Translations under genes and position numbers: made by a program
Notes under the pieces: generated by a model
What the model was told of the DNA's origin: nothing
Database searches by the model: none
What the model saw: only the letters and a program-made list of their open reading frames with translations
Shown here: positions 5,835 through 57,684 of the stretch, one piece after another
How positions within the stretch are numbered: the first letter of the stretch is position 1
Layout: each line of letters begins with the position of its first letter
Assembly (NCBI GenBank): GCA_030390025.1
Contig: CM059432.1
Location: forward strand, 67,024,001-67,088,000
Length of the DNA: 64,000 nt
DNA from: Squalus acanthias
Lineage: Eukaryota
Direction of reading: 5' to 3'

Positions 5835-7172
5835 TTTACCCACTGATTGAAACATTAGCTTGTTAAAATAAAAGCTGTCTCATTGATATTTAGTACCATA
5901 ATTATTATTGCAATGTCCAATACAATTTTTCTTCCGATGTTTGTACCTTTTGCACAACAACACTGATGTAAATATTCCACAATTCTCAACTTTCTAGTTT
6001 ATTTAATCCAAAAACATCTATGTGTGCAAAAACATTTTGCAATTGGCTTTTCTTGGTTTCATCAATCATAACCCTTATGGGAAACACCTGACAGTGGAAA
6101 GGCACCTAATATGCACTTCTACTTGCCCCATGCTTCTGGAAAGTCCAGTGACTACCCACTTTTATGTGGGTGCCCAGTTCCCTCTCCACTATCCAGCTCC
6201 ACCTTGGCCTTCTGTGTAAGGGGGCCTAACCAAATTATTTTCTAAAAAAAAGACAATCTTTCTTCAGGGGTCCGCTGGTAGGGCCCACTGCGGTTTGTCT
6301 GCAGGCAAATTTGCCTCATCTTTCACAACCTACTCACCTCCAATATTATGCGCGGGGCACTTATGAGCCAGGAAGCAGGAACTCCCAATGTAGGAAGTCC
6401 CTGGCACTGGCTCAGCTCCCTCGGCTCCACAGACTTGCCGACATACTTTCAAAATTATTTGGGAATATCTCCCATATTGCACAACATCTCACTCATTGCC
6501 AATTTTTCAATTTGTTTTGTGTTCTAATTTCTCCCCGTGTTCTCTTTTGCAAAATGTTTACTACATTTCCATCCAACTGAGTGGCAGGTCTTCCCTGTGC
6601 AAATGTACCACCGCTATTCAAGAAAGGAGGGAGAGAGAAAACAGGGAACTACAGGCCAGTTAGCCTGACATCAGTCATCGACACAATGCCGGAATCCATT
6701 GTTAAGGAAGTGGTATCAGGGCACTTAGAAAATGATAACATGATTAGGCAGAGTCAACATGGTTTTATGAAAGGCAAATCATGTTTGACAAATTTATTAG
6801 AGTTTTTTGAGGATGTAACTAGCAGGGTAGATAAAGGGGAACCAGTGGATGTAGTATATTTGGAATTCCAAAAGGCATTCGATATGGTGCCACATAAAAG
6901 GTTATTACACAAGATTAGGGCTCATGGGGTTGGGGTAATATAGTAGCATGGATAGAGGATTGGTTAACGGACAGAAAACAGAGAGTAGGGATAAACGGAT
7001 CTTTTTCAGATTGGTAGGCTGTAACTAGTGGGGTGCCGCAAGGATCAGTGTTGGGGCCTCAGCTATTTACAATCTATATTAATGACCTAGATGAAGGGAC
7101 CGAGTGTAATGTATCCAAGTTTGCTGATGATACAAAGCTAGGTGGAACAGTAAGCTGTGAGGAGAACACAAA

Positions 7173-25290: not shown

Positions 25291-25899
25291 GACTAGAACC
25301 AGTAATGCACATATCTCTAATTATCACCTTGTATATTGTTCAATTAAAGATAATTAATTCTCTCAAGGTCTGTGCAAGGCATATGTAAAGCCTGCACCCA
25401 CATTTCCTATCTGTCTGCTGCTCGTCAGATAGCACAAATATCTGCTGTGACTGGTTAAAAGTGAATGGGGTTTAGGTACAGATCAGCCATGATCTAATTG
25501 AATGGTGGAACAAGTTCGAGGGACTGAATGTCCCACTCCTATGAAACTGTACTTTTTGCAACTCTGCCTTTAGTTTGCAACATAGTGCTAATATAATGGC
25601 CTGTTCGGAAGTTCAGATTAGCGTAAAAAATAAGTTACATGCCACCAATAAATGGCTCAATTTAATTTTTAATTAATTGAATGTTATTACTGGCGTGCTA
25701 AACCTGTATTAAAATGTTACCACGTGAACCTTAATGACTGGACTGACATATTGCACCTGGTAGCAAGTGGATGTTAAGTTTCACAAAATTCTGAATAGCT
25801 GCCCCAAAATGGAGTTCTTTGAATGTTTGCCAAGTTTGTCCTACCTTCATTTCCAGTGGTAGATCAGATCTGGACATTAAAAAATGTGAAAATCCTTAC

Positions 25900-25970
25900 C
25901 TTTTTAGCCTGACAATATTCTTTTTCCATCACTTTTCCAAGTACCCAAGGTCTCCTAGAAGAACCTGGAA
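25900..25970 (-). CDS. RB1CC1: RB1CC1/FIP200 penultimate coding exon
   Basis: Minus strand: ctgttag|TT CCA GGT TCT TCT AGG AGA CCT TGG ... GCT AAA AAG|gtaagg. The 71 nt give (V)PGSSRRPWVLGKVMEKEYCQAKK, in phase with both neighbouring exons. Confidence 0.97.
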
Positions 25971-28545
25971 CTAACAGTAAACAAGTAATTTGTCAATGAC
26001 TAAATCAGTACCACTAAAGCCAATTACAGAACTATTTGTTCCTTGAAAAATTTACTTTTTAAGCTTGGAGGGTGAAAAGCCTTTTCCAAGCTTCTCCATC
26101 ATAAACAACCCTAAGTGATCCATCAGCAGAAACTACTAGTTCAAACAATGACCATTCTTTTTCTTCCTCCTTCTCCAAAGTATGAAAATGGGCTGCTCAC
26201 TTCCAGAAGATGCTATACCTCAGACAGGCTCAACTGATATGTAGATTTAAACGTGATAAATCTATGACTTCAGGTGTGGCCTTCAATCAGGACAGAAATA
26301 CTTCTGTTAGATTACCTACCATAGGCATGGCTTTTCTTATTCTTTGAAAGAGGTTTGATGTTCACATACAATAGATTACTGTTATTCTAGAGATGGAAAA
26401 TCATCTAGGGGTCTCATCTCTCTAACACAATATATGCATAGAGCTGCCATTTTGTCAGGTGATATTCCCCCTCTGTTATACAGAAGGGCGCATTCTGCAT
26501 GAAGGCAGCAACAGCCCAAGAAAAAATAAACACACAATACAAAAACTGCTCCAAACAACATGTTAAAAGCAGAACTGAGGTAGTTCATAATTTTAGGTAT
26601 AGCCTTTCAGGGGGCAGCCAAAAACAAATTTATGCAAAATCGTGACACATACAGTTCCTAAACAAAGCTAGATCCAAGTAAACATTCTATCAGGTAAATC
26701 GAAAAATCTGCCCTTATGTTCTACACTCATTGTATATAGTTATAATATTATAACTGTTAGTTGAGGGGTCAAAGACAGAATCTATTTGGTTAGAATTAAG
26801 GAAGAGAGGAATTATTATGCTACTGGGTGTATACTATCGGCCACAGAATAGTGGGAAGGAGATAGAGGAGCAAATTTGCAGGCAAATTACAGAAAGATAC
26901 AAGAACTACAGAGAAGTGATAATGGGGGACTTCGATTATCCTAATAAAGACTGGGAAAGTAACAGTGTAAAGAACAAAGAGAGGGAGGAATTCCTGAAAT
27001 GTGTACAAGAAAACTTTCTTGACCAATGTGTTTCCAGCCCAACAAGGAAGGAAGCAGTGCTGGATCTAGTTCTGGGGAATGAAATGGAGCATGTTTCAGT
27101 GGGAGAGCATTTGGAGAACAGTGATCTTTATTTCATCAGGTTTAGAATAGTTAAGGAAAAGAATAAGGAACAATCAAGCATAAAAATACTTAACTGGAGG
27201 AAGGCTAACTTCACAGAGTTGAAAAGGGATCTGGCCAAGGTGGACTGGAATCAAAAATTGGGAGGCAAAACAGTAACTGAACAATGGGAGGCCTTCAAAG
27301 AGAAGATGGTTCACGTACAGAGTTGACACATTCCCAAGAGCGGGAAAGGAAGGACATCCAAAGCTAGAGCTCCCTGGATGACTAAAGATGTAGAGGTTAA
27401 AATGAGACAGAAAAAGGAAGCTTATGACAAATGTATGGTTCATAATACAGTAGAGAACCAAGCTGAATATAGAAAGTACAGAGGAGATCTAAAAAAGGGG
27501 AATAAGAGGGGCAAAGAGGAGAGTATGAGAATAGATTAGTGAGTAACATAAAAGGGAACTCAAAAGTCTTTTATAAACACAAATAAAAGGGTAGTCAAAG
27601 GGCCAATTAGGGACCAAAAAGAAGATATTCTTGTGGAGGCAGAGGGCATGGCTGAGGTACTAAATGAGTACTTTGCAACTGTCTTCACTAGAGAAGAGGA
27701 TATTGCCAATACAGCAGTAAAGGAGGAGGCAGTAGCAATATTGGATAGGATAAAAATAGATAAAGAGGAGGTACTTAAAAGGTTGGCAGTCGTCAAAGTA
27801 GAAAAGTCACGTGGTCCAGATGGGATGCATCCTAGGTTACGGAGGGAAGTAAGGATGGAAATTGTGGAGGCTTTGGCCATAACTTTCCAATCTTCCTTGA
27901 ATTTGGGGATGGTGCCAGAGGATTGCAAATGTTACACCCCTGTTTAAAAAAGGAGAGGGGGATAAACCCAGCAAATATAGGCCAGTCAGCCTAACGTCAG
28001 TGGTAGGAAACTTTTAAAGACAATAATCTGGGACAAAATTAATTGGCATTTGGAAAAGTATGGGCTAATAAATGAAAGTCAGCATGGATTTATTAAAGAC
28101 AAATAGTGTTTGACTAACTTGATTGAGTTATTTGATGAAGTGACGGAGAGGGTTGATGAAGGTAGTGTAGTTGGTGTATATGGACTTTCAAAAGACATTT
28201 GACAAAGTACCACATAATAGACTTGTTTGCAAAATTAAAGCCCATGGGATTAAAGGGACAGTGGCAGCATGGATACAAAATTGGATATAAGGGACAGAAA
28301 GCAGAGAGTTGTGAAGTTGTTTTTCAGACTGGAGAGAGGTATACAGTGGTATTCCTCAGGGGTCAGTATTAGGACCACTGCTCTTTTTGATATATATTTC
28401 TGAACTGGACTTGGATATACAGGGTATAATTTCAAAGTTTGCAGATGACACAAAAGTCAAAAATGCAGTAAACAATGAGGAGGATAGTAACAGACTTCAG
28501 GAGGACATAGACAGGCAGGTGAAATGGGCCGACACATGGCAGATG

Positions 28546-29904
28546 GATTTGCGGAGGGTAGATCGTGCTTGACTGATCTGCTGGAGTTTTTTGGGGATGT
28601 GGCTGGTGGGGTGGATAGGGGAGGGCCGGTGGATGTGGTGTATTTGGACTTGAGGGGCTTACGATGGGGGTCCCGCATAGGAGATTGGCGTGTAGGGTTG
28701 GGGCACATGGGATTGGGGGCGGGGTACTGACTTGGATGGGGAACTGGTTGGCAGACAGAGGGCAGGGAGTTGGAATGGACGGGTCTTTTTCCGGGTGGCG
28801 GGCGGTGGCTGGTGGGGTGCTGCGGGGATCGGTCCATGGACCCCAGCTATTCACAATGTGTGTTAGTGATCTGGACGGGGGAACTGGATGTGATGTCTCC
28901 GGGTTTGCGGATGACGCAGGGCTGGGTGGGCGTGTGCGCTGTGAGGAAGATGCCGAGAAACTCCAGGATGATTTGGACGGGTTGGGTGATTGGCCGGAAG
29001 CATGGCGGATGCAATGTAGCGTGGATAGATGCGGGGTTGTCCACTTTGGTGTCAGAAGCGGGAAGACAGATTATTGTCTGAATGGCGATAGATTGGGAGA
29101 GGGGGAGGTGCAACGAGACCTGGGTGTCCTTGTGCACCAGTCGCTGGGGGTGGGCATGCAGGTGCAGCAGGCGGTTGGGGGGGCGGGTGGTATGTTGGCG
29201 TCCGTAGCGAGAGGGTTTGGGTACAGGAACGGGGATGTCTTGCTGCAGTTGTGCGGGGCCTTGGTGGGACCGCATCTTGGGTTGTGTGCGCAGTTTTGGT
29301 CGCCTTATCTGGGGAGGGAGGTTCTTGCCATGGAGGGGGTTCGGCGAAGATTCACCGGGCTGATGGCGGGAGTGACATGTGGGGAGAGATTGGGCTTATG
29401 CTCGCTGGAGTTTGGGGGGGGGGGGGGGGGGGTGAGAGGGGATCTCATTTAAGCTTATAAAATTCTGCCAGGACTGGACGCAGGAGTGATATTCCCGATG
29501 GTCGGGGGGTCCGGAACCAGGGGACACGGTCTAGGGATGGGGGGTAGGCTGTTTAGGGCGGGGATGGGGAGGAATTTCTTCACCCAGGGGGTGGTGAACC
29601 TGTGGAATTCTCTACCACAGAGGGCGGTGGAGGCCAATTCATTGAATGTATTCAGGAAGGAGTTGGATATATTTCTTAAGGCTAGAGGGATCAAGGGATA
29701 TGGGGAGAAAGCAGGGACAGGGTTCTGAATTTGGATGATCGGCCATGGTCGCGTTGAGTGGCGGAGCGGGCTGGAGGGGCCGAGTGGCTTACTCCTGCTC
29801 CTATCTTCTATGTAATTGGATAGCACCTTCAAAGAGCCTGCACAGGCATGATGGGCCGAATTCACTCCTTCTGTACTGTCAGAATCTATAATTTTTTTAT
29901 TTTT
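28546..29904 (+). mobile_element. 5'-truncated CR1 copy with A-to-G hypermutation, followed by a second CR1-type 3' tail
   Basis: RT-to-3'UTR homology with neighbouring CR1s but with many A replaced by G; possible TSD AGATG (28541-28545 and 29905-29909). Confidence 0.92.
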
Positions 29905-30149
29905 AGATGAAATTTAACAGATATGTGAAGTGATAAAATTTGGTAGGAGGAATGAGGAGAGGCAATATGAACTAAATGCTACAATTTTAAAGGGGGCGCT
30001 GGAATAGAGAGACCTGGGAATGTATGTTCACAAATCTTTGAAGGTGGCAGGACAAGTTGAAAAGGCGTTTTATTAAAAATCATATGGGATCCTTAGCTTT
30101 AAGCGAGAAAGGCTCTACGAGAAGGGTGAACCATCCGTGGCTAACTAAG

Positions 30150-31830
30150 AACATAAGAACATAAGAAATAGGAGCAGGAGTAGGCCAATCGGCCCCTCGA
30201 GCCTGCTCCGCCATTCAATAAGATCATGGCTGATCTGATCCTAACCGCCAATCTACTATCTATCACAGAACCATCTCCTGCATCTAACAGAATTGCACAC
30301 ACGAAATAGGAGCAGAATCAGGCTACACAGTCCCTGGGCCCGCTCCACTACCCACAGGGCCATGACCGATCCGAACCTAGACTCATGTCCAAATTCCTGC
30401 CCGCTCCCCGTAACCCTTAATGCCCTTTACTTCTAGGAAACTGTCTATTTCTGTTTTAAATTTAATTAATGTTGTAGCTTCTACAGCTTTTTGTGGCAGC
30501 ATATTCCATGGACCTACCACCCTCTGAGTGAAGTAGTTCCTCCTCATCTCAGTTTTGAAAGAGCAGCCCCTTATTCTAAGACTATGTCCCCTAGTTCTCG
30601 TCTCACCCGTCATCGGGAACATCCTCCCCGCATCCACCCGATCCAACCCCTTCACAATCTTATGTTTCAATAAGATCGCCTCTCATTCTTCTGAACTCCA
30701 ATGAGTAGAGTCCCAATCTACCCAACCTCTCCTCATATGACCACCCCCTCATCCCCGGGATTAACCGAGTGAACCTTTTTTGCACTGCCTCGAGAGCAAG
30801 GATGTCTTTCCTTAAGTAAGGACACCAAAACTGTATGCAGTATTCCAGGTGCGGTCTCACCAATACCTTGTACAACTGAAGCAATACCTCCCTATTTTTA
30901 TATTCTATCCCCCTAGCAATGAAAGCCAACATTCCATTTGCCTTCTTAATCACTTGCTGCACCTGCATACTAACCTTTTGAGTTTCGTTCACCAGGACCC
31001 CCAGATCCCTTTGCACTTCAGTACTCTCCAGTTTCTTGCCATTAAGATAATAAATTGCTCTAGGATTTTTCCTGCCAAAGTGCATCACCTCACACTTTCC
31101 AGTGTTGTATTCCATCTGCCAAATCTCTGCCCACTTACTTAGCCTGTCTATGTCCCCTTGCAGGTTTTTTATGTCCTCCTCACTCACTACTTTCCCTCCC
31201 ATCTTTGTATCATCTGCAAATTTTGATATGTTACACTTGGTCCCTTCCTCCAAATCGTTAATATAGATTGTGAAGAGTTGGGGACCCAGCACTGACCCCT
31301 GTGGAACACCACTAGTTACTGATTGCCAGTCTGAGAATGAACCATTTATCCCAACTCTTTGCTTTCTGTTAGATAGCCAATCCTCTATCCATGCCAGAAT
31401 ATTACCCCCAATCCCGTGATTTTTTACCTTAAGCAATAATCTTTTGTGTGGCACCTTGTCAAATGCCTTTTGGAAGTCTAAATACACTACGTCCACTGGT
31501 TCCCCTTTATCCACTCTATATGTTACTTCCTCAAAGAACTCCAGCAAATTTGTCAAACATGACTTCCCCTTCGTAAAACCATGCTGACTTTGTCCTATTA
31601 AATTATGATTATCCAAATGTCCTGTTACTGTTTCCTTAATAATGGACTCCAAAATTTTACCTACCACAGATGTTAGGCTAACCGGTCTATAGTTACCAGC
31701 CTTCTGTCTACTGCCCTTTTTAAATAAGGGTGTTACATTAGCAGTTTTCCAGTCTGCCGGGACCTTAGCGGAATCCAGGGAGTTTTGAAAAATTATTACC
31801 AATGCATCTACAATCCCTACCGCCACTTCG
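30150..31830 (-). mobile_element. Young 5'-truncated CR1 LINE in antisense orientation with an open RT frame
   Basis: Minus ORF 30660-31925 has an uninterrupted RT ([34 protein letters not shown]); 3' tail (TTCTTATG)n at 30150-30165. Confidence 0.95.
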
Positions 31831-33450
31831 AAGATAAGGAGGGTATCAAATTGAAAGAAAAGGCATACAATGTTGCGAAGAGTAGTGGTAGGCCAGAGGA
31901 TTGGGAAATTTTTAGAAACCAGCAAAGGATGTCTAAAAAAATTATAAAGAGGGAGAAGATAGAGTATGAGAGTAAACTAGCAAATAATATAAAAAGTCAG
32001 CAAGAGCTTCTACAGGTATATACAAAGGAAGAGAGTAGCTAAAGTAAACATTGGTCCCTTAGAGGATGAGACTGGGGAATTAATAATGGGAAATGGCAGA
32101 GACTCTAAACAATTATTTTGGATTGGTCTTCACGGTTGAAGAGACTAAAAACATCCCAATAATAATTGATAATCAAGGGGCTATAGGGAGGGAGGAACTT
32201 AAAACATTCACTATCACTAGAGAAAAAGTACTAGGCAAACTAATGGGGCTAAAGGCTGACAAGTCCCCTGGACCTGATGGCCTGCATTCTAAGGTCTTAA
32301 AAGAAGTGGCTGCAGAGATAGTGGATGCATTAGTTGTAATCTACCAAAATTCCCTGGATTCTGGAGAGGTCCCAGTGGATTGGAAAACCACAAATGTAAT
32401 GCGACTATTCAAGAAAGGAGGGAGACAGAAAGCAGGAAACTATAAGCCAGTTAGCCTAACATCTGTCATTGGGAAAATGCTGGAATCCATTATTAAGGAG
32501 GTAATAGCAGGACATTTAGAAAAACATGAGACAATCAAGCAGAGTCAACATGGTTTTATGAAAGGGAAATTGTGTTTGACAAATCTGCTAGAGTTCTTTG
32601 AGGATGTAACAAACAGGGTGGATAAAGGGGAACCAGTAGATGTAGTATATATTTGGATTTCCAGAAGGCATTCGATAAAGGTGCCACATAAAAGGTTACT
32701 GCACAAGATAAAAGTGCACGGGGTTGGGGGTAATATATTGGCATGGATAGGGGAGTGGCTAACTAACAGAAAACAGAGAGTCGGGATAAATGGGTCATTT
32801 TCCGGTTGGCAACCAGTAACTAGTGGGGTGCCACAGGGATCAGTGTTGGGATCTCAACTATTTACAATCTATATTAATGACTTGAATGAAGGGACCGAGT
32901 GTACTGTAGCCAAATTTGCTGATGATACAAAGATAGGTGGGTTAACAAGTTGTGAGGAGGACACAAAGAGTCTGCAAAGGAATATAGATAGGTTAAGTGA
33001 GTGGGCAAAAATTTGGCAGATGGAGTATAATGTGGGAAAATGTGAGGTTATCCACTTTGGAAGGAAGAATGAAAAAGCAAATTATTATTTAAATGGTATG
33101 AGACTACAAAATGCTGCGGTACAAAGGGATCTGGGGGTCCTAGTACATGAAACACAAAAAGTTAGCATGCAGGTACAGCAAGTAATTAGGAAGGGTAATG
33201 GAATGTTGGCCTTTATTGCAAGGGGTATGGAGTATAAAAGTAGGGACGTTTTGATGCAACATTACAGGGCGCTGGTGAGACCGCACCTGGAGTACTGCGT
33301 ACAGTTTTGGTCTCCATATTTAAGGAAGGATATACTTGCATTGGAGGCAGTGCAGAGAAGGTTCACTAGGTTGATTCCTGGGATGACATATGACAAAAGG
33401 TTGAGCCTATACTCATTGCAGTTTAGAAGAATGAGAGGTGATCTTATCAT

Positions 33451-38750: not shown

Positions 38751-39911
38751 CTAGAAGCGGCTTGCTATTAGTCGTTGACGGACGGCCCTTGCAGTTTGAC
38801 CATTGTGGGCCGCCCTCCTGCCTTGGTGCTGCTGCTGATCATCGTCCTCGGCCTGTTCCTCCTCTTCCTCCTCCTCCTCTTGTGGTGCTGCAAGGCCTGG
38901 TGGCATTGGCTGCGTCCTGAGGATTGCCATGTTGTGCAACATGCAGCACACCACTACGAATTTGGAAACTTGCTCAGGCGAGTACTGCAGGGCTCCTCCG
39001 GAATGGTCCAGACAGCGGAATCGTTGTTTGAGCACGCCGATTGTGCGCTCAATAATGTTCCTCGTTGCTTGTTGGCTTTCCTGGTACCGCAGCTCAGCAG
39101 GGGTGTTTGGCGCACGGAGCGGTGTCATCAGCCAGGTGCTCAATGCGTACCCCTTGTCCCCCAGAAGCCAACCAACTGGCTGATGCGGTGCCTCGAAAAT
39201 TTCTGCCACAGTACTCTGGCGCAGGATGAAAGCATCGTGGCAGCTGCCCGGATAGTGGGCATTGACAGCGAGAATCACCTGTCTGTGGTCACAGACCAAC
39301 TGCACATTCAAGGAATGGAACCCCTTTCTGTTCCGGAACTCCTCTGCATTCTCTCGCGGAGCACGCAAAGCCACATGCGTGCAGTCAATGGCGCCCTGCA
39401 CCATGGGGAAGCCCGCTACCCTCGCAAAGCCCATAGCACGGTCATGCTGCTTGTCTGGGGTCATAGGGAAGGAGATGAAGTCTCGTCTCCTTGTGAAGAG
39501 GGCATTGGTGACCTGCCGGATGCAGCGATGCACCGCAAACTGGGAGATATTGGCGAGGTCCCCAACAGCAGCTTGGAATGAGCCAGTGGCGTAGAAGTTC
39601 AAAGCCACTGTGACCTTCACTGCCACCGACAGAGACGTCCTGGACCTCAGCTGAGGCTGCAGATCTGGCTGCAGCAGGTGGCAGAGCTCAGTGACCACCT
39701 CCTTGCTGAATCGCAGCCTTCGCAAACACAGCTCCTCGGACATGTGGATGTAGGAGAGCTGTTCACGATATACCCTGGGAGGGTAAGCTCTCCTGTACAT
39801 GCGCCTGATGGCCCTCCTCCGTCTGGCCATCATTGCCACTCTCTGTCTGCGTCTCACTCTCCTCCGATTGAGCTGGAGCAGGACGACGCCCCCAATCATT
39901 GCAGCCCCCAT
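38751..39911 (-). CDS. Harbinger (HARBI1-like) DDE transposase, 386 aa, open frame
   Basis: Catalytic motifs [63 protein letters not shown]. Confidence 0.96.
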   Translation of the reverse strand: MGAAMIGGVVLLQLNRRRVRRRQRVAMMARRRRAIRRMYRRAYPPRVYREQLSYIHMSEELCLRRLRFSKEVVTELCHLLQPDLQPQLRSRTSLSVAVKVTVALNFYATGSFQAAVGDLANISQFAVHRCIRQVTNALFTRRRDFISFPMTPDKQHDRAMGFARVAGFPMVQGAIDCTHVALRAPRENAEEFRNRKGFHSLNVQLVCDHRQVILAVNAHYPGSCHDAFILRQSTVAEIFEAPHQPVGWLLGDKGYALSTWLMTPLRAPNTPAELRYQESQQATRNIIERTIGVLKQRFRCLDHSGGALQYSPEQVSKFVVVCCMLHNMAILRTQPMPPGLAAPQEEEEEEEEQAEDDDQQQHQGRRAAHNGQTARAVRQRLIASRF

Positions 39912-40589
39912 ATTCTCTTTGCCAGAAAAGTAATGAGGTACAGCAACGAAAGTAGCAGCAAAGTTAGGATGAACTAGGCAAAACTACCTCACAAAGCGTT
40001 GAGTCAATGTAGAAGTCTCTCTCTCTCTCTCTCCGAATCTCTCTCTCTCTCTCAGAACGAGTGGTGCATAAATGTCGACCACAGAAAAAGACAGGAAGAG
40101 GCCCCCTTTAAATAGCGCCCCCCCCAGCCCCACACCGATTGATAACGTTCCAGTCTTCCGGTCGTTGGAAGCGCCAGGCGGTAAGGCAGGGGGCGCCACT
40201 CAATTTCCGCTCCGGGGCGCCCCAAGGGCGTTGCACCACGGAATGACGTCACAATCTGCGCGCGCAGGTGGTCGCAGCGGTAAGTTTTAGCGCCGCCGCA
40301 CAATCTCAAGTTAAGTTCTCGAGCGTCGCAAACAGCGCTGCGCCCGGGCGTTAGCGCCTTAACGCCCCATTAGCGCCCATTTAAGGCGCTAACGGGAGGC
40401 GCAACCAACTGAATTTTTACCCCCTACTGTCTAACAGTCCTGTCTGAAAAGGTGATACTTCATTTAAGGATAATGGAAAATAATTAAGATGGCCTATTGC
40501 TTTGCCTGTAAATTTATCTTAAAGCAAGCACAGAAGCTACAAATAATGTTTTCCATTGAATCTCTGAGCGCCACATTTAAAAAAAATGT

Positions 40590-50970: not shown

Positions 50971-51953
50971 ATCATATCCCTACACAAATTTGTTTTGAAT
51001 GTTTTGTACATTCACATAGGTACCGCTCCAATTTTTTGCAACGTTGACCTTTGTTCTTTTTCCTGGTTTTCTCATTAGATTTTTTGATATCCTTTGCCTC
51101 TTCTAAAACAGCATTTTAATCTCTCTCAAAGCCTCTTTCTTTCTCTTCTGATATTTTCTGCTTGTCAACAGCTTTATTAATTATACTCTCCCTACCACCG
51201 CCATATTTGGTTCAGGCAAAATATCCCATCAGCTACGATTTCTCAATTCGCTAAAACTTCTTTCTTTAAATATTGCACCTTTGTCAGTCACCAAAATAAA
51301 AAAATGTAACTTTTTAAATTCAGCGTGTGAAGGGGTGGGTGGATTTAAACAATCCACTCATGAATTGTTGGGGCTTAAGCCATGACAAACATAGATGACT
51401 TACCTGCTCTCATCTTCTGCTCAGTGACTACTTCAGCAAATTATTCAAATAAGCTATGAGTGTTAGGGAAAGATCCCAGTACTCACCCACTCAATGCCAG
51501 TTGAATGCATAATTAGGAAATGCTGTCAAACTTGTTAAAAATGAAAGACTTCAGTGTCTAAGTCACAGAGAATCTTGCAGTATGGCTCCCAACATTACTT
51601 TAGTTCTAGATATTTATCTGATCTGCTTACTATTCATATTCAAGGAATCTACAATATAAACACTAATCAATATGAATTGCTGAAAAAAAATAAACGATTA
51701 CATCATGTGATGACAAGTAATTAGTGTTGCTGGTGACGTGAACACAACTGAAGTGCACTTAAATAGCAAGCATTCTATGCACATATACAGAAGTAAGGAT
51801 GACCACACAACCTCTGTACAACGCCAATACGTTAAAAGAGCACATTAGCCCATAATTTGCCGTGAGTAAGAACAGTGAAAAACAGCGTTCGCTGTTATTA
51901 CCCCTTTGAAACTGACCGTAACTTCAGGATTCTTCAAAAATGTGCTTGCTCAC

Positions 51954-52081
51954 CTGGTTTAAGATCCAATGCTCCCAATGACTCTGAATGCAGGAAGTAA
52001 AGGGTTGGGCCAACAGTAAATAGAACGTAGTTATCATGACGTTCATCCAAGATAATAAGCACTAGATCTCCAACTTGGAAA
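51954..52081 (-). CDS. RB1CC1: RB1CC1/FIP200 internal coding exon (third from last; Claw domain)
   Basis: Minus strand: ttttacag|T TTC CAA GTT ... CTT AAA CCA G|gtgag. The 128 nt translate to FQVGDLVLIILDERHDNYVLFTVGPTLYFLHSESLGALDLKP, which I recognise as the vertebrate RB1CC1 C-terminus. Canonical AG/GT sites; phase fits the next exon. Confidence 0.97.
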
Positions 52082-52487
52082 CTGTAAAAGAAACCAATAC
52101 AATATCAATGGTAAATTTGAATATCACTAAACTCTTATTCAAATTCTACACTGGTTACATATCAGTAAACCCATTAAAAAAAGTCCTTGCTACAGAAGAG
52201 GAATACAAGAGTTCAAAGCTTAATTTAAGTTCTATATATTGGTTTTGCTCTCCTTAATGATACTATAAGTAAGGACATTGTCAGTGGAATATTCAATCCC
52301 ACTTACACGGCAGTTCCTTGACATTTTGAATTTCAATAGGCCAAACTGCAGTAGCACTACTTTCAGTTGTAAATTACATAATTTGATCCATCACCTCCCT
52401 TATTCTAAACTAGAGTGGACAACTCCTCACTTGAGGGATAAGCAACAACTGAATCACTGCAGGAAAACAGATAAATGCTACAATAAT

Positions 52488-55707: not shown

Positions 55708-56859
55708 CTAGAAGCGGCTTGCTATTAGTCGTTGACGGACGGCCCTTGCAGTTTGACCATTGTGGGCCGCCCTCCCGCCTTGGTGCTGCTGATGATCATC
55801 GTCCTCGTCCTGTTCCTCCTCCTCCTCTGGTGGTGCTACAAGGCCTGGTGGCATTGGCTGGGTCCTGAGGATTGCCATGTTGTGCAACATGCAGCACACG
55901 ACTACGAAGTTCGAAACTTGCTCAGGCGAGTACTGCAGGGCTCCTCCGGAATGGTCCAGACAGCGGAACCGTTGTTTCAGCACGCCGATTGTGCGCTCAA
56001 TAATGTTCCTGGTTGCTTGATGGCTTTCATTGTACCGCAGCTCAGCAGGGGTGTTTGGCGTACGGAGCGGTGTCATCAGCCAGGTGCTCAATGCGTACCC
56101 CTTGTCCCCCAGAAGCCAACCAACTGGCTGATGCGGTGCCTCGAAAAGTTCTGCCACAGTAGTCTGGCGCAGGATGAAAGCATCGTGGCAGCTGCCCGGA
56201 TAGTGGGCATTGACAGCGAGAATCACCTGTCTGTGGTCACAGACCAACTGCACATTCAAGGAATGGAACCCCTTTCTGTTCCTGAATTCCTCTGCATTCT
56301 CTCGCGGAGCACGCAAAGCCACATGCGTGCAGTCAATGGCGCCCTGCACCATGGGGAAGCCCGCTACCCTCGCAAAGCCCATAGCACGGTCATGCTGCTT
56401 GTCTGGGGTCATAGGGAAAGAGATGAAGTCTCGTCTCCTTCTGAAGAGGGCATTGGTGACCTGCCGGATGCAGCGATGCACCGCAAACTGGGAGATATTG
56501 GCGAGGTCCCCAACAGCAGCTTGGAATGAGCCAGTGGCGTAGAAGTTCAAAGCCACTGTGACCTTCACTGCCACCGACAGAGACGTCCTGGACCTCAGCT
56601 GAGGCTGCAGATCTGGCTGCAGCAGGTGGCAGAGCTCAGTGACCACCTCCTTGCTGAATCGCAGCCTTCGCAAACACAGCTCCTCGGACATATGGATGTA
56701 GGAGAGCTGTTCACGATATACCCTGGGAGGGTAAGCTCTCCTGTACATGCGCCTGATGGCCCTCCTCCGTCTGGCCATCATTGCCACTCTCTGTCTGCGT
56801 CTCACTATCCTCCGATTCAGCTGGAGCAGGACGACGCCCCCAATCATTGCAGCCCCCAT
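55708..56859 (-). CDS. Harbinger (HARBI1-like) DDE transposase, 383 aa, open frame
   Basis: GAIDCTH, LLGDKGY, YNESHQATRNIIERTIGVLKQRFRCL and CCMLHN all intact. Confidence 0.96.
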   Translation of the reverse strand: MGAAMIGGVVLLQLNRRIVRRRQRVAMMARRRRAIRRMYRRAYPPRVYREQLSYIHMSEELCLRRLRFSKEVVTELCHLLQPDLQPQLRSRTSLSVAVKVTVALNFYATGSFQAAVGDLANISQFAVHRCIRQVTNALFRRRRDFISFPMTPDKQHDRAMGFARVAGFPMVQGAIDCTHVALRAPRENAEEFRNRKGFHSLNVQLVCDHRQVILAVNAHYPGSCHDAFILRQTTVAELFEAPHQPVGWLLGDKGYALSTWLMTPLRTPNTPAELRYNESHQATRNIIERTIGVLKQRFRCLDHSGGALQYSPEQVSNFVVVCCMLHNMAILRTQPMPPGLVAPPEEEEEQDEDDDHQQHQGGRAAHNGQTARAVRQRLIASRF

Positions 56860-57684
56860 ATTCTCTTTGCCAGAAAAGTAATGAGGTACAGCAACTAAAG
56901 TAGCAACAAAGTTAGGATGAACTAGGCCAAACTACCTCACAAAGCGTTGAGTCAATGTAGAAGTCTCTCTCTCTCTCTCTCTCCGAATCTCTCTCTCTCT
57001 CTCAGAACGAGTGGTGCATAAATGTCGACCACAGAAAAAGACAGGAAGAGGCCCCCTTTAAATAGCGCCCCCCCCAGCCCCACACCGATTGATAACGTTC
57101 CAGTCTTCCGGTCGTTGGAAGCGCCAGGCGGTAAGGCAGGGGGCGCCACTCAATTTCCGCTCCGGGGCGCCCCAAGGGCGTTGCACCATGGAATGACGTC
57201 ACAATCTGCGCGCGCAGGTGGTCGCAGCGGTAAGTTTTAGCGCCGCCGCACAATCTCAAGTTAAGTTCTCGAGCGGCGCAAACAGCGCTGCGCCCGGGCG
57301 TTAGCGGCTTAACGCCCCATTAGCGCCCTCTTAAGGCGCTAACGGGAGGCGCAACCAAGTGAATTTTTACCCCATGGAATTGGATAAAAACTACAAAATC
57401 CCACAAAAACAGAACATGGCCCTCCAATATGTGTTATTTCAGCTTTTGACAAAACTCTGAAAATATTTAAAACAAAACCTCAAAATTAAAATTTTAAAAG
57501 GTTACAATAAAAAAAAAAATACTTGTTTCATTAAGGATTAATTACGTGAATCTTGGTTAATGCAATGAAATTCTGGGGGAAACCTCTGAAACATTTTGAT
57601 CATACACCTTTTAACGTATGACAGTGACCCAAGGCACTTCAGAGGCATAAGGAGTGCAGCGCTTTGCTAAATTTACTCTGTAGT

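Follow-up and report, generated by a model that had tools for sequence, protein, structure and literature searches.

ADARs hyper-edit long duplex RNA, and the resulting inosine is copied as G (PMC5224506). The closest described cases in which such editing reached DNA come from birds, where hyper-edited RNA of Rous-associated virus as well as avian leukosis virus was fixed in proviral DNA (Felder 1994; Hajjar and Linial 1995; both as summarised in PMC12925331). As in the CR1 copies described here, clustered A>G changes affected near half of the adenosines and entered DNA by reverse transcription. The avian cases, however, concern exogenous retroviruses and lie in the LTR region or an inverted repeat, whereas here a non-LTR element that lacks an internal hairpin and belongs to the inherited genome is altered along as much as 2.2 kb. 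Retroelements with APOBEC-type G-to-A changes (PMC4866542, PMC3880073) are likewise single genomic copies with strand-biased, motif-bearing clusters found against subfamily relatives, but our copies show the opposite direction, an RNA substrate and the ADAR motif. According to its available text, the screen in PMC4866542 dealt with LTR elements and kept alignments in which G-to-A dominated over A-to-G, other mismatch types being very rare; its supplements may include occasional A>G clusters from LTR elements. In the available text of PMC3880073, G-to-A and C-to-T were examined and lizard CR1 gave no signal.

A further parallel is the restriction of human LINE-1 by ADAR1, as there, too, ADAR meets LINE RNA and ribonucleoprotein (PMC5224506). 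In the accessible parts of that report, editing was undetected in more than 2.5 kb of L1 RNA from human cells, the authors allowing for a small edited fraction, and restriction was independent of editing and did not need the deaminase. Here, in contrast, the edited fraction is visible as DNA. Comparison of high-quality DNA traces with their reference disclosed no A-to-G excess in the accessible text of PMC2873906, a design blind to copies already in the reference. A 2016 review regarded the part played by editing in the evolution and suppression of Alu as undetermined (PMC4982230, in its available sections), and the case for edited RNA passing into DNA has been made on the basis of correlations (PMC10209271). 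Our literature searches, run on article texts without supplements and mostly outside subscription journals, revealed no description of LINE copies with A>G hyper-editing in any reference genome. For retroviruses, ADAR-edited precedents are known.

The copy under study is a CR1 LINE at 28546-29812 of the window, i.e., the whole stretch of 64,000 nucleotides that was analysed. It contains 17% A and 43-44% G, compared with 31-36% A in the adjoining sense-strand CR1s. A sequence-only reading had proposed that A is replaced by G throughout this copy, using other CR1s of the window (32549-33430, 30660-31830 and 6760-7170) as reference. These neighbours are members of other families, with only 61-67% identity, so they were dropped and genomic family copies were taken as comparators, namely the best 30 of 40 matches retrieved from the 3.7-Gb genome. 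In pairwise comparisons with the 29 other loci, A>G ranged from 120 to 161 and G>A from 2 to 12 in 28 cases; the remaining locus, L004, is itself edited. The column majority of the 28 unedited family copies served as reference for the spectrum. Against this majority, 141 of 364 A were changed to G, while T>C affected 4 of 303 positions (Fisher p 4e-38 for A>G against T>C) and all remaining types numbered five or fewer. G>A was found at 4 of 385 positions, the direction being set by the family majority, so that the G>A clusters on the element sense typical of APOBEC are lacking. Both the replacement of A by G and the lack of a comparable T-to-C excess thus held true, though with other comparators. 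In 56 unedited copies the background of A>G had a median of 0.8% of A and a maximum of 4.2%. Identity of the copy to the 29 family loci among the best matches was 80-84%, and approximately 96-97% when A>G was left aside.

The bases adjacent to the edited positions were not random. Editing affected 28 of 125 A following G but 113 of 233 following other bases (p 1.5e-6), and 69 of 123 A preceding G but 72 of 235 preceding others (p 4.5e-6). The rates after A (49/89) and after T (35/66) were similar. The earlier statement that A preceded by G is mostly spared has to be softened, since such sites are depleted, yet 22% of them were edited. When this copy and a second one were pooled, the trinucleotides TAG (42/50), AAG (64/94) and TAA (46/71) ranked high and GAA (20/91), GAC (9/50) and GAT (8/96) low, a tenfold spread. 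Depletion of 5′ G was also detected in other copies (L004, p 7e-9; L066, p 4e-4; L067, p 8e-5), while the 3′ G enrichment in L004 was non-significant (53/124 vs 88/244, p 0.21). Zebrafish ADAR sites show G depleted upstream and enriched downstream, and the highest editing in zebrafish occurs in ovary and testis (PMC8096273). From this neighbour motif we infer that ADAR was probably the enzyme. A TpA-type or RIP-like DNA hypermutation, which would strike both strands at one dinucleotide and spread into the flanks, does not agree with edits on one strand after all four 5′ neighbours and with clean flanks.

Synonymous (37/88) and non-synonymous sites (104/260) were equally edited, which gives no sign of selection; altogether 92 of 389 codons were changed. 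The predicted amino-acid routes were recovered in the edited copy (R>G, K>R, E>G, K>G, I>V, T>A, Y>C, Q>R and N>D). Of the peptides previously put down to editing, FTMCVSDL and GFADDAG were confirmed, while the L in GVLRGSV originates from a C>T change at 28821. A Pfam search with the edited RT segment yielded no match.

Positions of the elements at the locus are compiled in the table below. The tails of the family carry an 8-base repeat instead of poly(A), and the copy is truncated at its 5′ end; the label CR1, given in the sequence-only reading, fits the tail type characteristic of this group. The A>G edits span 28551-29784, starting 5 bases inside the 5′ end and stopping before the tail. 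The truncation, the tail typical of CR1 and the 5-bp duplication that encloses the block are marks of retrotransposition. The duplication was deduced from two homologues of the host element, L017 and L035, which overlap by 5 bases across the block. The junction at 29813 is unique in the genome, and a genomic search for a parent with the same 3′ junction gave this locus only. The block 28546-29904 is possibly a template-switch chimera, a 3′ transduction or the outcome of two insertions at one spot. Within approximately 120 bases, the copy also exhibits three 9-base deletions (at 29361, 29392 and 29479) and a G run (29414-29432) lengthened by 12 bases, possibly through slippage on a G-rich template. 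The edited block is intronic: exons of an ATG11-domain gene flank it to the left and to the right, all on the minus strand; judged by its motifs, this gene is presumably RB1CC1/FIP200.

Table. Elements of the edited CR1 locus and its surroundings (window coordinates)
Feature	Position	Strand	Remark
5′-truncated CR1 LINE copy: 3′ part of ORF2, 3′ UTR, tail	28546..29812	+	ends match family copies
RT catalytic motif region: GFADDAG; unedited copy KFADDTK	28901..28921	+	
19-G run at 12-base insertion; probably an edited purine tract lengthened by slippage	29414..29432	+	unchanged in run X2
Terminal CR1 tail, unedited	29788..29813	+	3/3 TA kept
Unedited 3′ tail of another CR1 family (~80 bases) plus T-rich run, directly behind edited copy	29813..29904	+	
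Left copy of 5-bp target-site duplication AGATG	28541..28545	+	last three bases are microhomology with family sequence
Right copy of 5-bp duplication	29905..29909	+	
Left part of older host CR1 (another family), over the extent analysed; no hyper-editing	27800..28545	+	A>G 5/62, G>A 14 in testable columns
Right part of host CR1; no hyper-editing	29905..30100	+	columns 29814-30100: A>G 4/67, G>A 9
Open frame with late coding exon of host gene	25867..25992	-	no Pfam match on its own
Open frame with upstream exon of same intron, ATG11 domain	51937..52104	-	PF10377, E 1.6e-7

The locus is not the only one of its kind. Sixty loci, all picked by likeness to edited queries or patterns, were aligned after two duplicates had been left out. 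Four of them exhibited at least 17 A>G per 200 bases and the other 56 at most six, while T>C never exceeded six. A multi-family pattern yielded four further candidates (L066 to L069). Six copies are clearly edited, i.e., 28546-29812, L004, L034, L062, L066 and L067; they belong to three CR1 families and all show A>G on the sense strand. L004, 2.2 kb long, was edited over its full length (287 of 695 A); its catalytic motif reads FADG, the catalytic Asp being lost. In L034, 81 of the edits (84 of 894 A in total) fall inside one interval of approximately 1 kb, with almost none in the 1.2 kb before and the 0.58 kb after it; within this one copy the rate thus starts at 0 of about 190 A, climbs to roughly 30% and then returns to 0. 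L034 (G000:C17:29570898-29575172, minus strand), a young copy that extends over at least 2.8 kb, offers the best case for a search for an antisense partner. The edits of L062 (24/179) are mostly found toward the 3′ end. L067 (91/185) and L066 (30/122) were placed in two other families by their nearest relatives.

Two candidates were rejected as clear copies, because the pattern itself had selected the patch. L068 showed 10 of 140 A>G along with 10 G>A, eight of the edits lying within 43 bases, and L069 showed 10 of 156, four of them within 12 bases. Upstream of the CR1 copy, L069 contains a tandem array of an approximately 70-base unit (L069:200-790, reverse strand).

The copy 28546-29812 and L004 share 350 A, of which 145 and 135 were edited, respectively, and 77 in both. 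The sets overlap only partly and are not nested, which indicates independent events. Sharing was slightly above the trinucleotide expectation in two of three pairs (77 vs 68.7, p 0.02; 53 vs 45.9, p 0.02). Divergence of the edited copies apart from edits ranged from 1.05% to 4.2%, so the editing events differ in age. In the four copies edited end to end, terminal TA was kept in 15 of 15 cases within the last 26-35 bases, compared with per-copy editing rates of 45-82%, a count that was made post hoc and depends partly on recognising the tail. Out of seven copies checked, a target-site duplication was clear only in the block 28546-29904 and in L066; for L004, L062, L067, L068 and L069 none was clear. 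The flank test had usable columns except in the 5′ flanks of L004 and L062. Judged by their sequences, these elements form a class of LINE copies with ADAR-type editing that is rare but has arisen repeatedly in inherited DNA.

Their frequency was estimated from motif searches of the genome. The RT-region motif matched at least 29,087 copies, 14,631 and 14,456 in the two orientations. One site gave three edited matches among these copies (at least 29,087) and another gave four among at least 63,207, which would correspond to about 1 in 10,000 CR1 copies, an order of magnitude given the incomplete sensitivity of the searches. The site with 29,087 copies was picked partly because it catches known copies, and its value is that nothing new surfaced. 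A general RT-motif pattern retrieved only the copy 28546-29812 and the unedited L060. As one pattern missed both heavily edited copies covering its site, the predicted sensitivities are too high. T>C copies numbered zero with each of three genome-wide patterns. Six sense against zero antisense copies give p 0.03 when taken alone, sense copies having been searched harder.

We consider it very probable that CR1 RNA was hyper-edited by ADAR while paired with antisense RNA and subsequently retrotransposed in the germline. The greater part of a sense CR1 transcript would pair with antisense RNA from a close CR1 relative, and, as strand, type and neighbour pattern of the changes suggest, ADAR would deaminate approximately 40% of its adenosines to inosine. 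The CR1 reverse transcriptase would copy the edited RNA at a germline target site, reading inosine as G. Because an internal inverted repeat of at least 25 bases was not found in an unedited copy, antisense CR1 RNA is the presumed partner; with copies numbering tens of thousands over the two orientations, the genome can supply it. The inverted CR1 arms close by show 72% (109 nt) and 83% (77 nt) complementarity. The sharply bounded interval in L034 suits such a duplex. The enzyme would stem from unedited RNA, either the same molecule before editing or another in trans: with FADG, the edited RNA of L004 could hardly encode a working enzyme, and the ORF2 protein would have been made before editing or in trans. 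The last approximately 30 bases may have escaped through lack of pairing, through bound protein or because priming requires them. Such events would be rare, yet they recur in different CR1 families and at different ages, and each leaves a single dead copy. Our searches revealed neither a parent locus nor an antisense partner nor edited RNA. The low frequency of edited copies could reflect infrequent editing just as well as infrequent escape from restriction; being dead on arrival, they are uninformative on the number of edited RNAs that were stopped. The idea of the sequence-only reading that ADAR restricts LINEs thus finds no support in these measurements.

Among other explanations, deamination in place after insertion fares best, but it is unlikely. 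Here ADAR would have acted on the DNA strand of an R-loop formed with the host pre-mRNA, or an edited cDNA of the locus would have been the donor in a gene conversion. The plus strand at this locus is the template strand of the host gene, so an R-loop gives the same A>G direction, and the internal patch of L034 could be a conversion tract. ADAR edits DNA in hybrids in vitro, although in the available text of that source such editing was described at dA-C mismatches or with mutant enzymes (PMC12925331). Against this explanation, the edits keep within the inserted element at both ends, the adjoining CR1 DNA shows no editing on that strand, and all six clear copies were edited on the element sense. 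The sequence-only reading had argued from orientation, the edited strand being opposite to the host pre-mRNA. This is true but weak, precisely because an R-loop yields the same orientation; it is the unedited flanks that answer this rival. The core of that reading, namely that ADAR-type hyper-edited CR1 RNA was copied back into the genome, was supported.

Quite improbable is an adenine deaminase of another kind (TadA/ADAT-like) attacking a plus-strand DNA intermediate during insertion. As the mirror of APOBEC editing of retroelement cDNA, it would explain the strand, the confinement to the insertion and the rarity equally well. However, the neighbour pattern equals the published ADAR motif and is not limited to TpA, as the similar rates after A and T show, a T>C counterpart is absent, and the bounded patch of L034 suits a duplex. 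We know of no vertebrate adenine deaminase acting on DNA intermediates in this way.

An error catastrophe of the reverse transcriptase, e.g., misreading of template A with unbalanced dNTP pools, is very improbable. It is consistent with changes in one direction confined to the insertion, and the copy also carries the three deletions and the expanded G run. But the context spread matches ADAR, the rate in L034 rises from zero and returns to zero, and other mismatch types were not raised in L004 (1.6%) and L034 (1.05%), the family median being 1.6%.

The presence of the edits in DNA was checked in four sequencing runs, X2, X7, X9 and X14, whose types were guessed. Run X2, comprising 2 billion letters of contigs, is probably DNA. 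One of its contigs (201 bases) is identical to 29233-29432 (200 bases), a stretch with 22 edits plus 8 private changes, and another, of 142 bases, shows three differences across a stretch with 15 edits; among the pieces listed none spans the whole edited copy, and X2 may share its origin with the assembly. Two more X2 contigs at 29495-29565 differ from the window and from one another, as expected for two alleles. An assembly artefact from edited RNA data, GC-biased conversion or a G-rich subfamily is hardly credible, for despite the guessed run types and the partial contigs, X2 reproduces edits and private changes alike, T>C is not raised, the closest genomic matches listed are only 80-84% identical, and the edited copies have no common allele set. 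We conclude that the edited copy is real. None of the results that the earlier reading had listed as contrary to an origin in ADAR-edited RNA was obtained: T>C is rare, A after G is depleted, the edits occur in a probable DNA run and a multicopy G-rich subfamily is absent. Among the listed pieces of X14 none was informative for the edits, and no RNA run among the listed runs contained sequence of the edited copy. A piece of X7 from organism C (28581-28651) has 5 of 71 differences from the edited copy and 12 from the unedited one; for a piece of X9 from organism D (28870-28943) the values are 4 of 74 and 13. These contigs give a weak hint of orthologues or of other edited copies in other species.

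With somewhat more confidence than doubt, we suggest that ADAR-hyper-edited LINE copies are general, overlooked genomic fossils that occur in several families and species and date germline dsRNA and ADAR activity. On this assumption the spared 3′ tails would mean that editing hits an already assembled retrotransposition complex, and A-to-I edits would have a direct route to inherited DNA. The edited CR1 copies would represent direct germline sequence records of edited RNA becoming DNA, with a first rate estimate of approximately 1 in 10,000 insertions. Generality can now be checked in repeat-rich genomes by a collapsed-alphabet screen.

Some other elements of the window deserve mention. The host intron harbors an inverted CR1 pair (30749-31457 / 32678-33386) of 709 bases, 80% complementary and 1.2 kb apart, which is likely a present-day RNA editing substrate. 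Just before the exon at 25.9 kb, a short frame (25947-26000) encodes a peptide resembling the 52.0 kb exon, possibly by chance or through a small duplication. Finally, two near-identical open frames of approximately 410 residues with matching neighbours are located on the minus strand at 38754-39983 and 55711-56931; they are probably copies of a DNA transposon.
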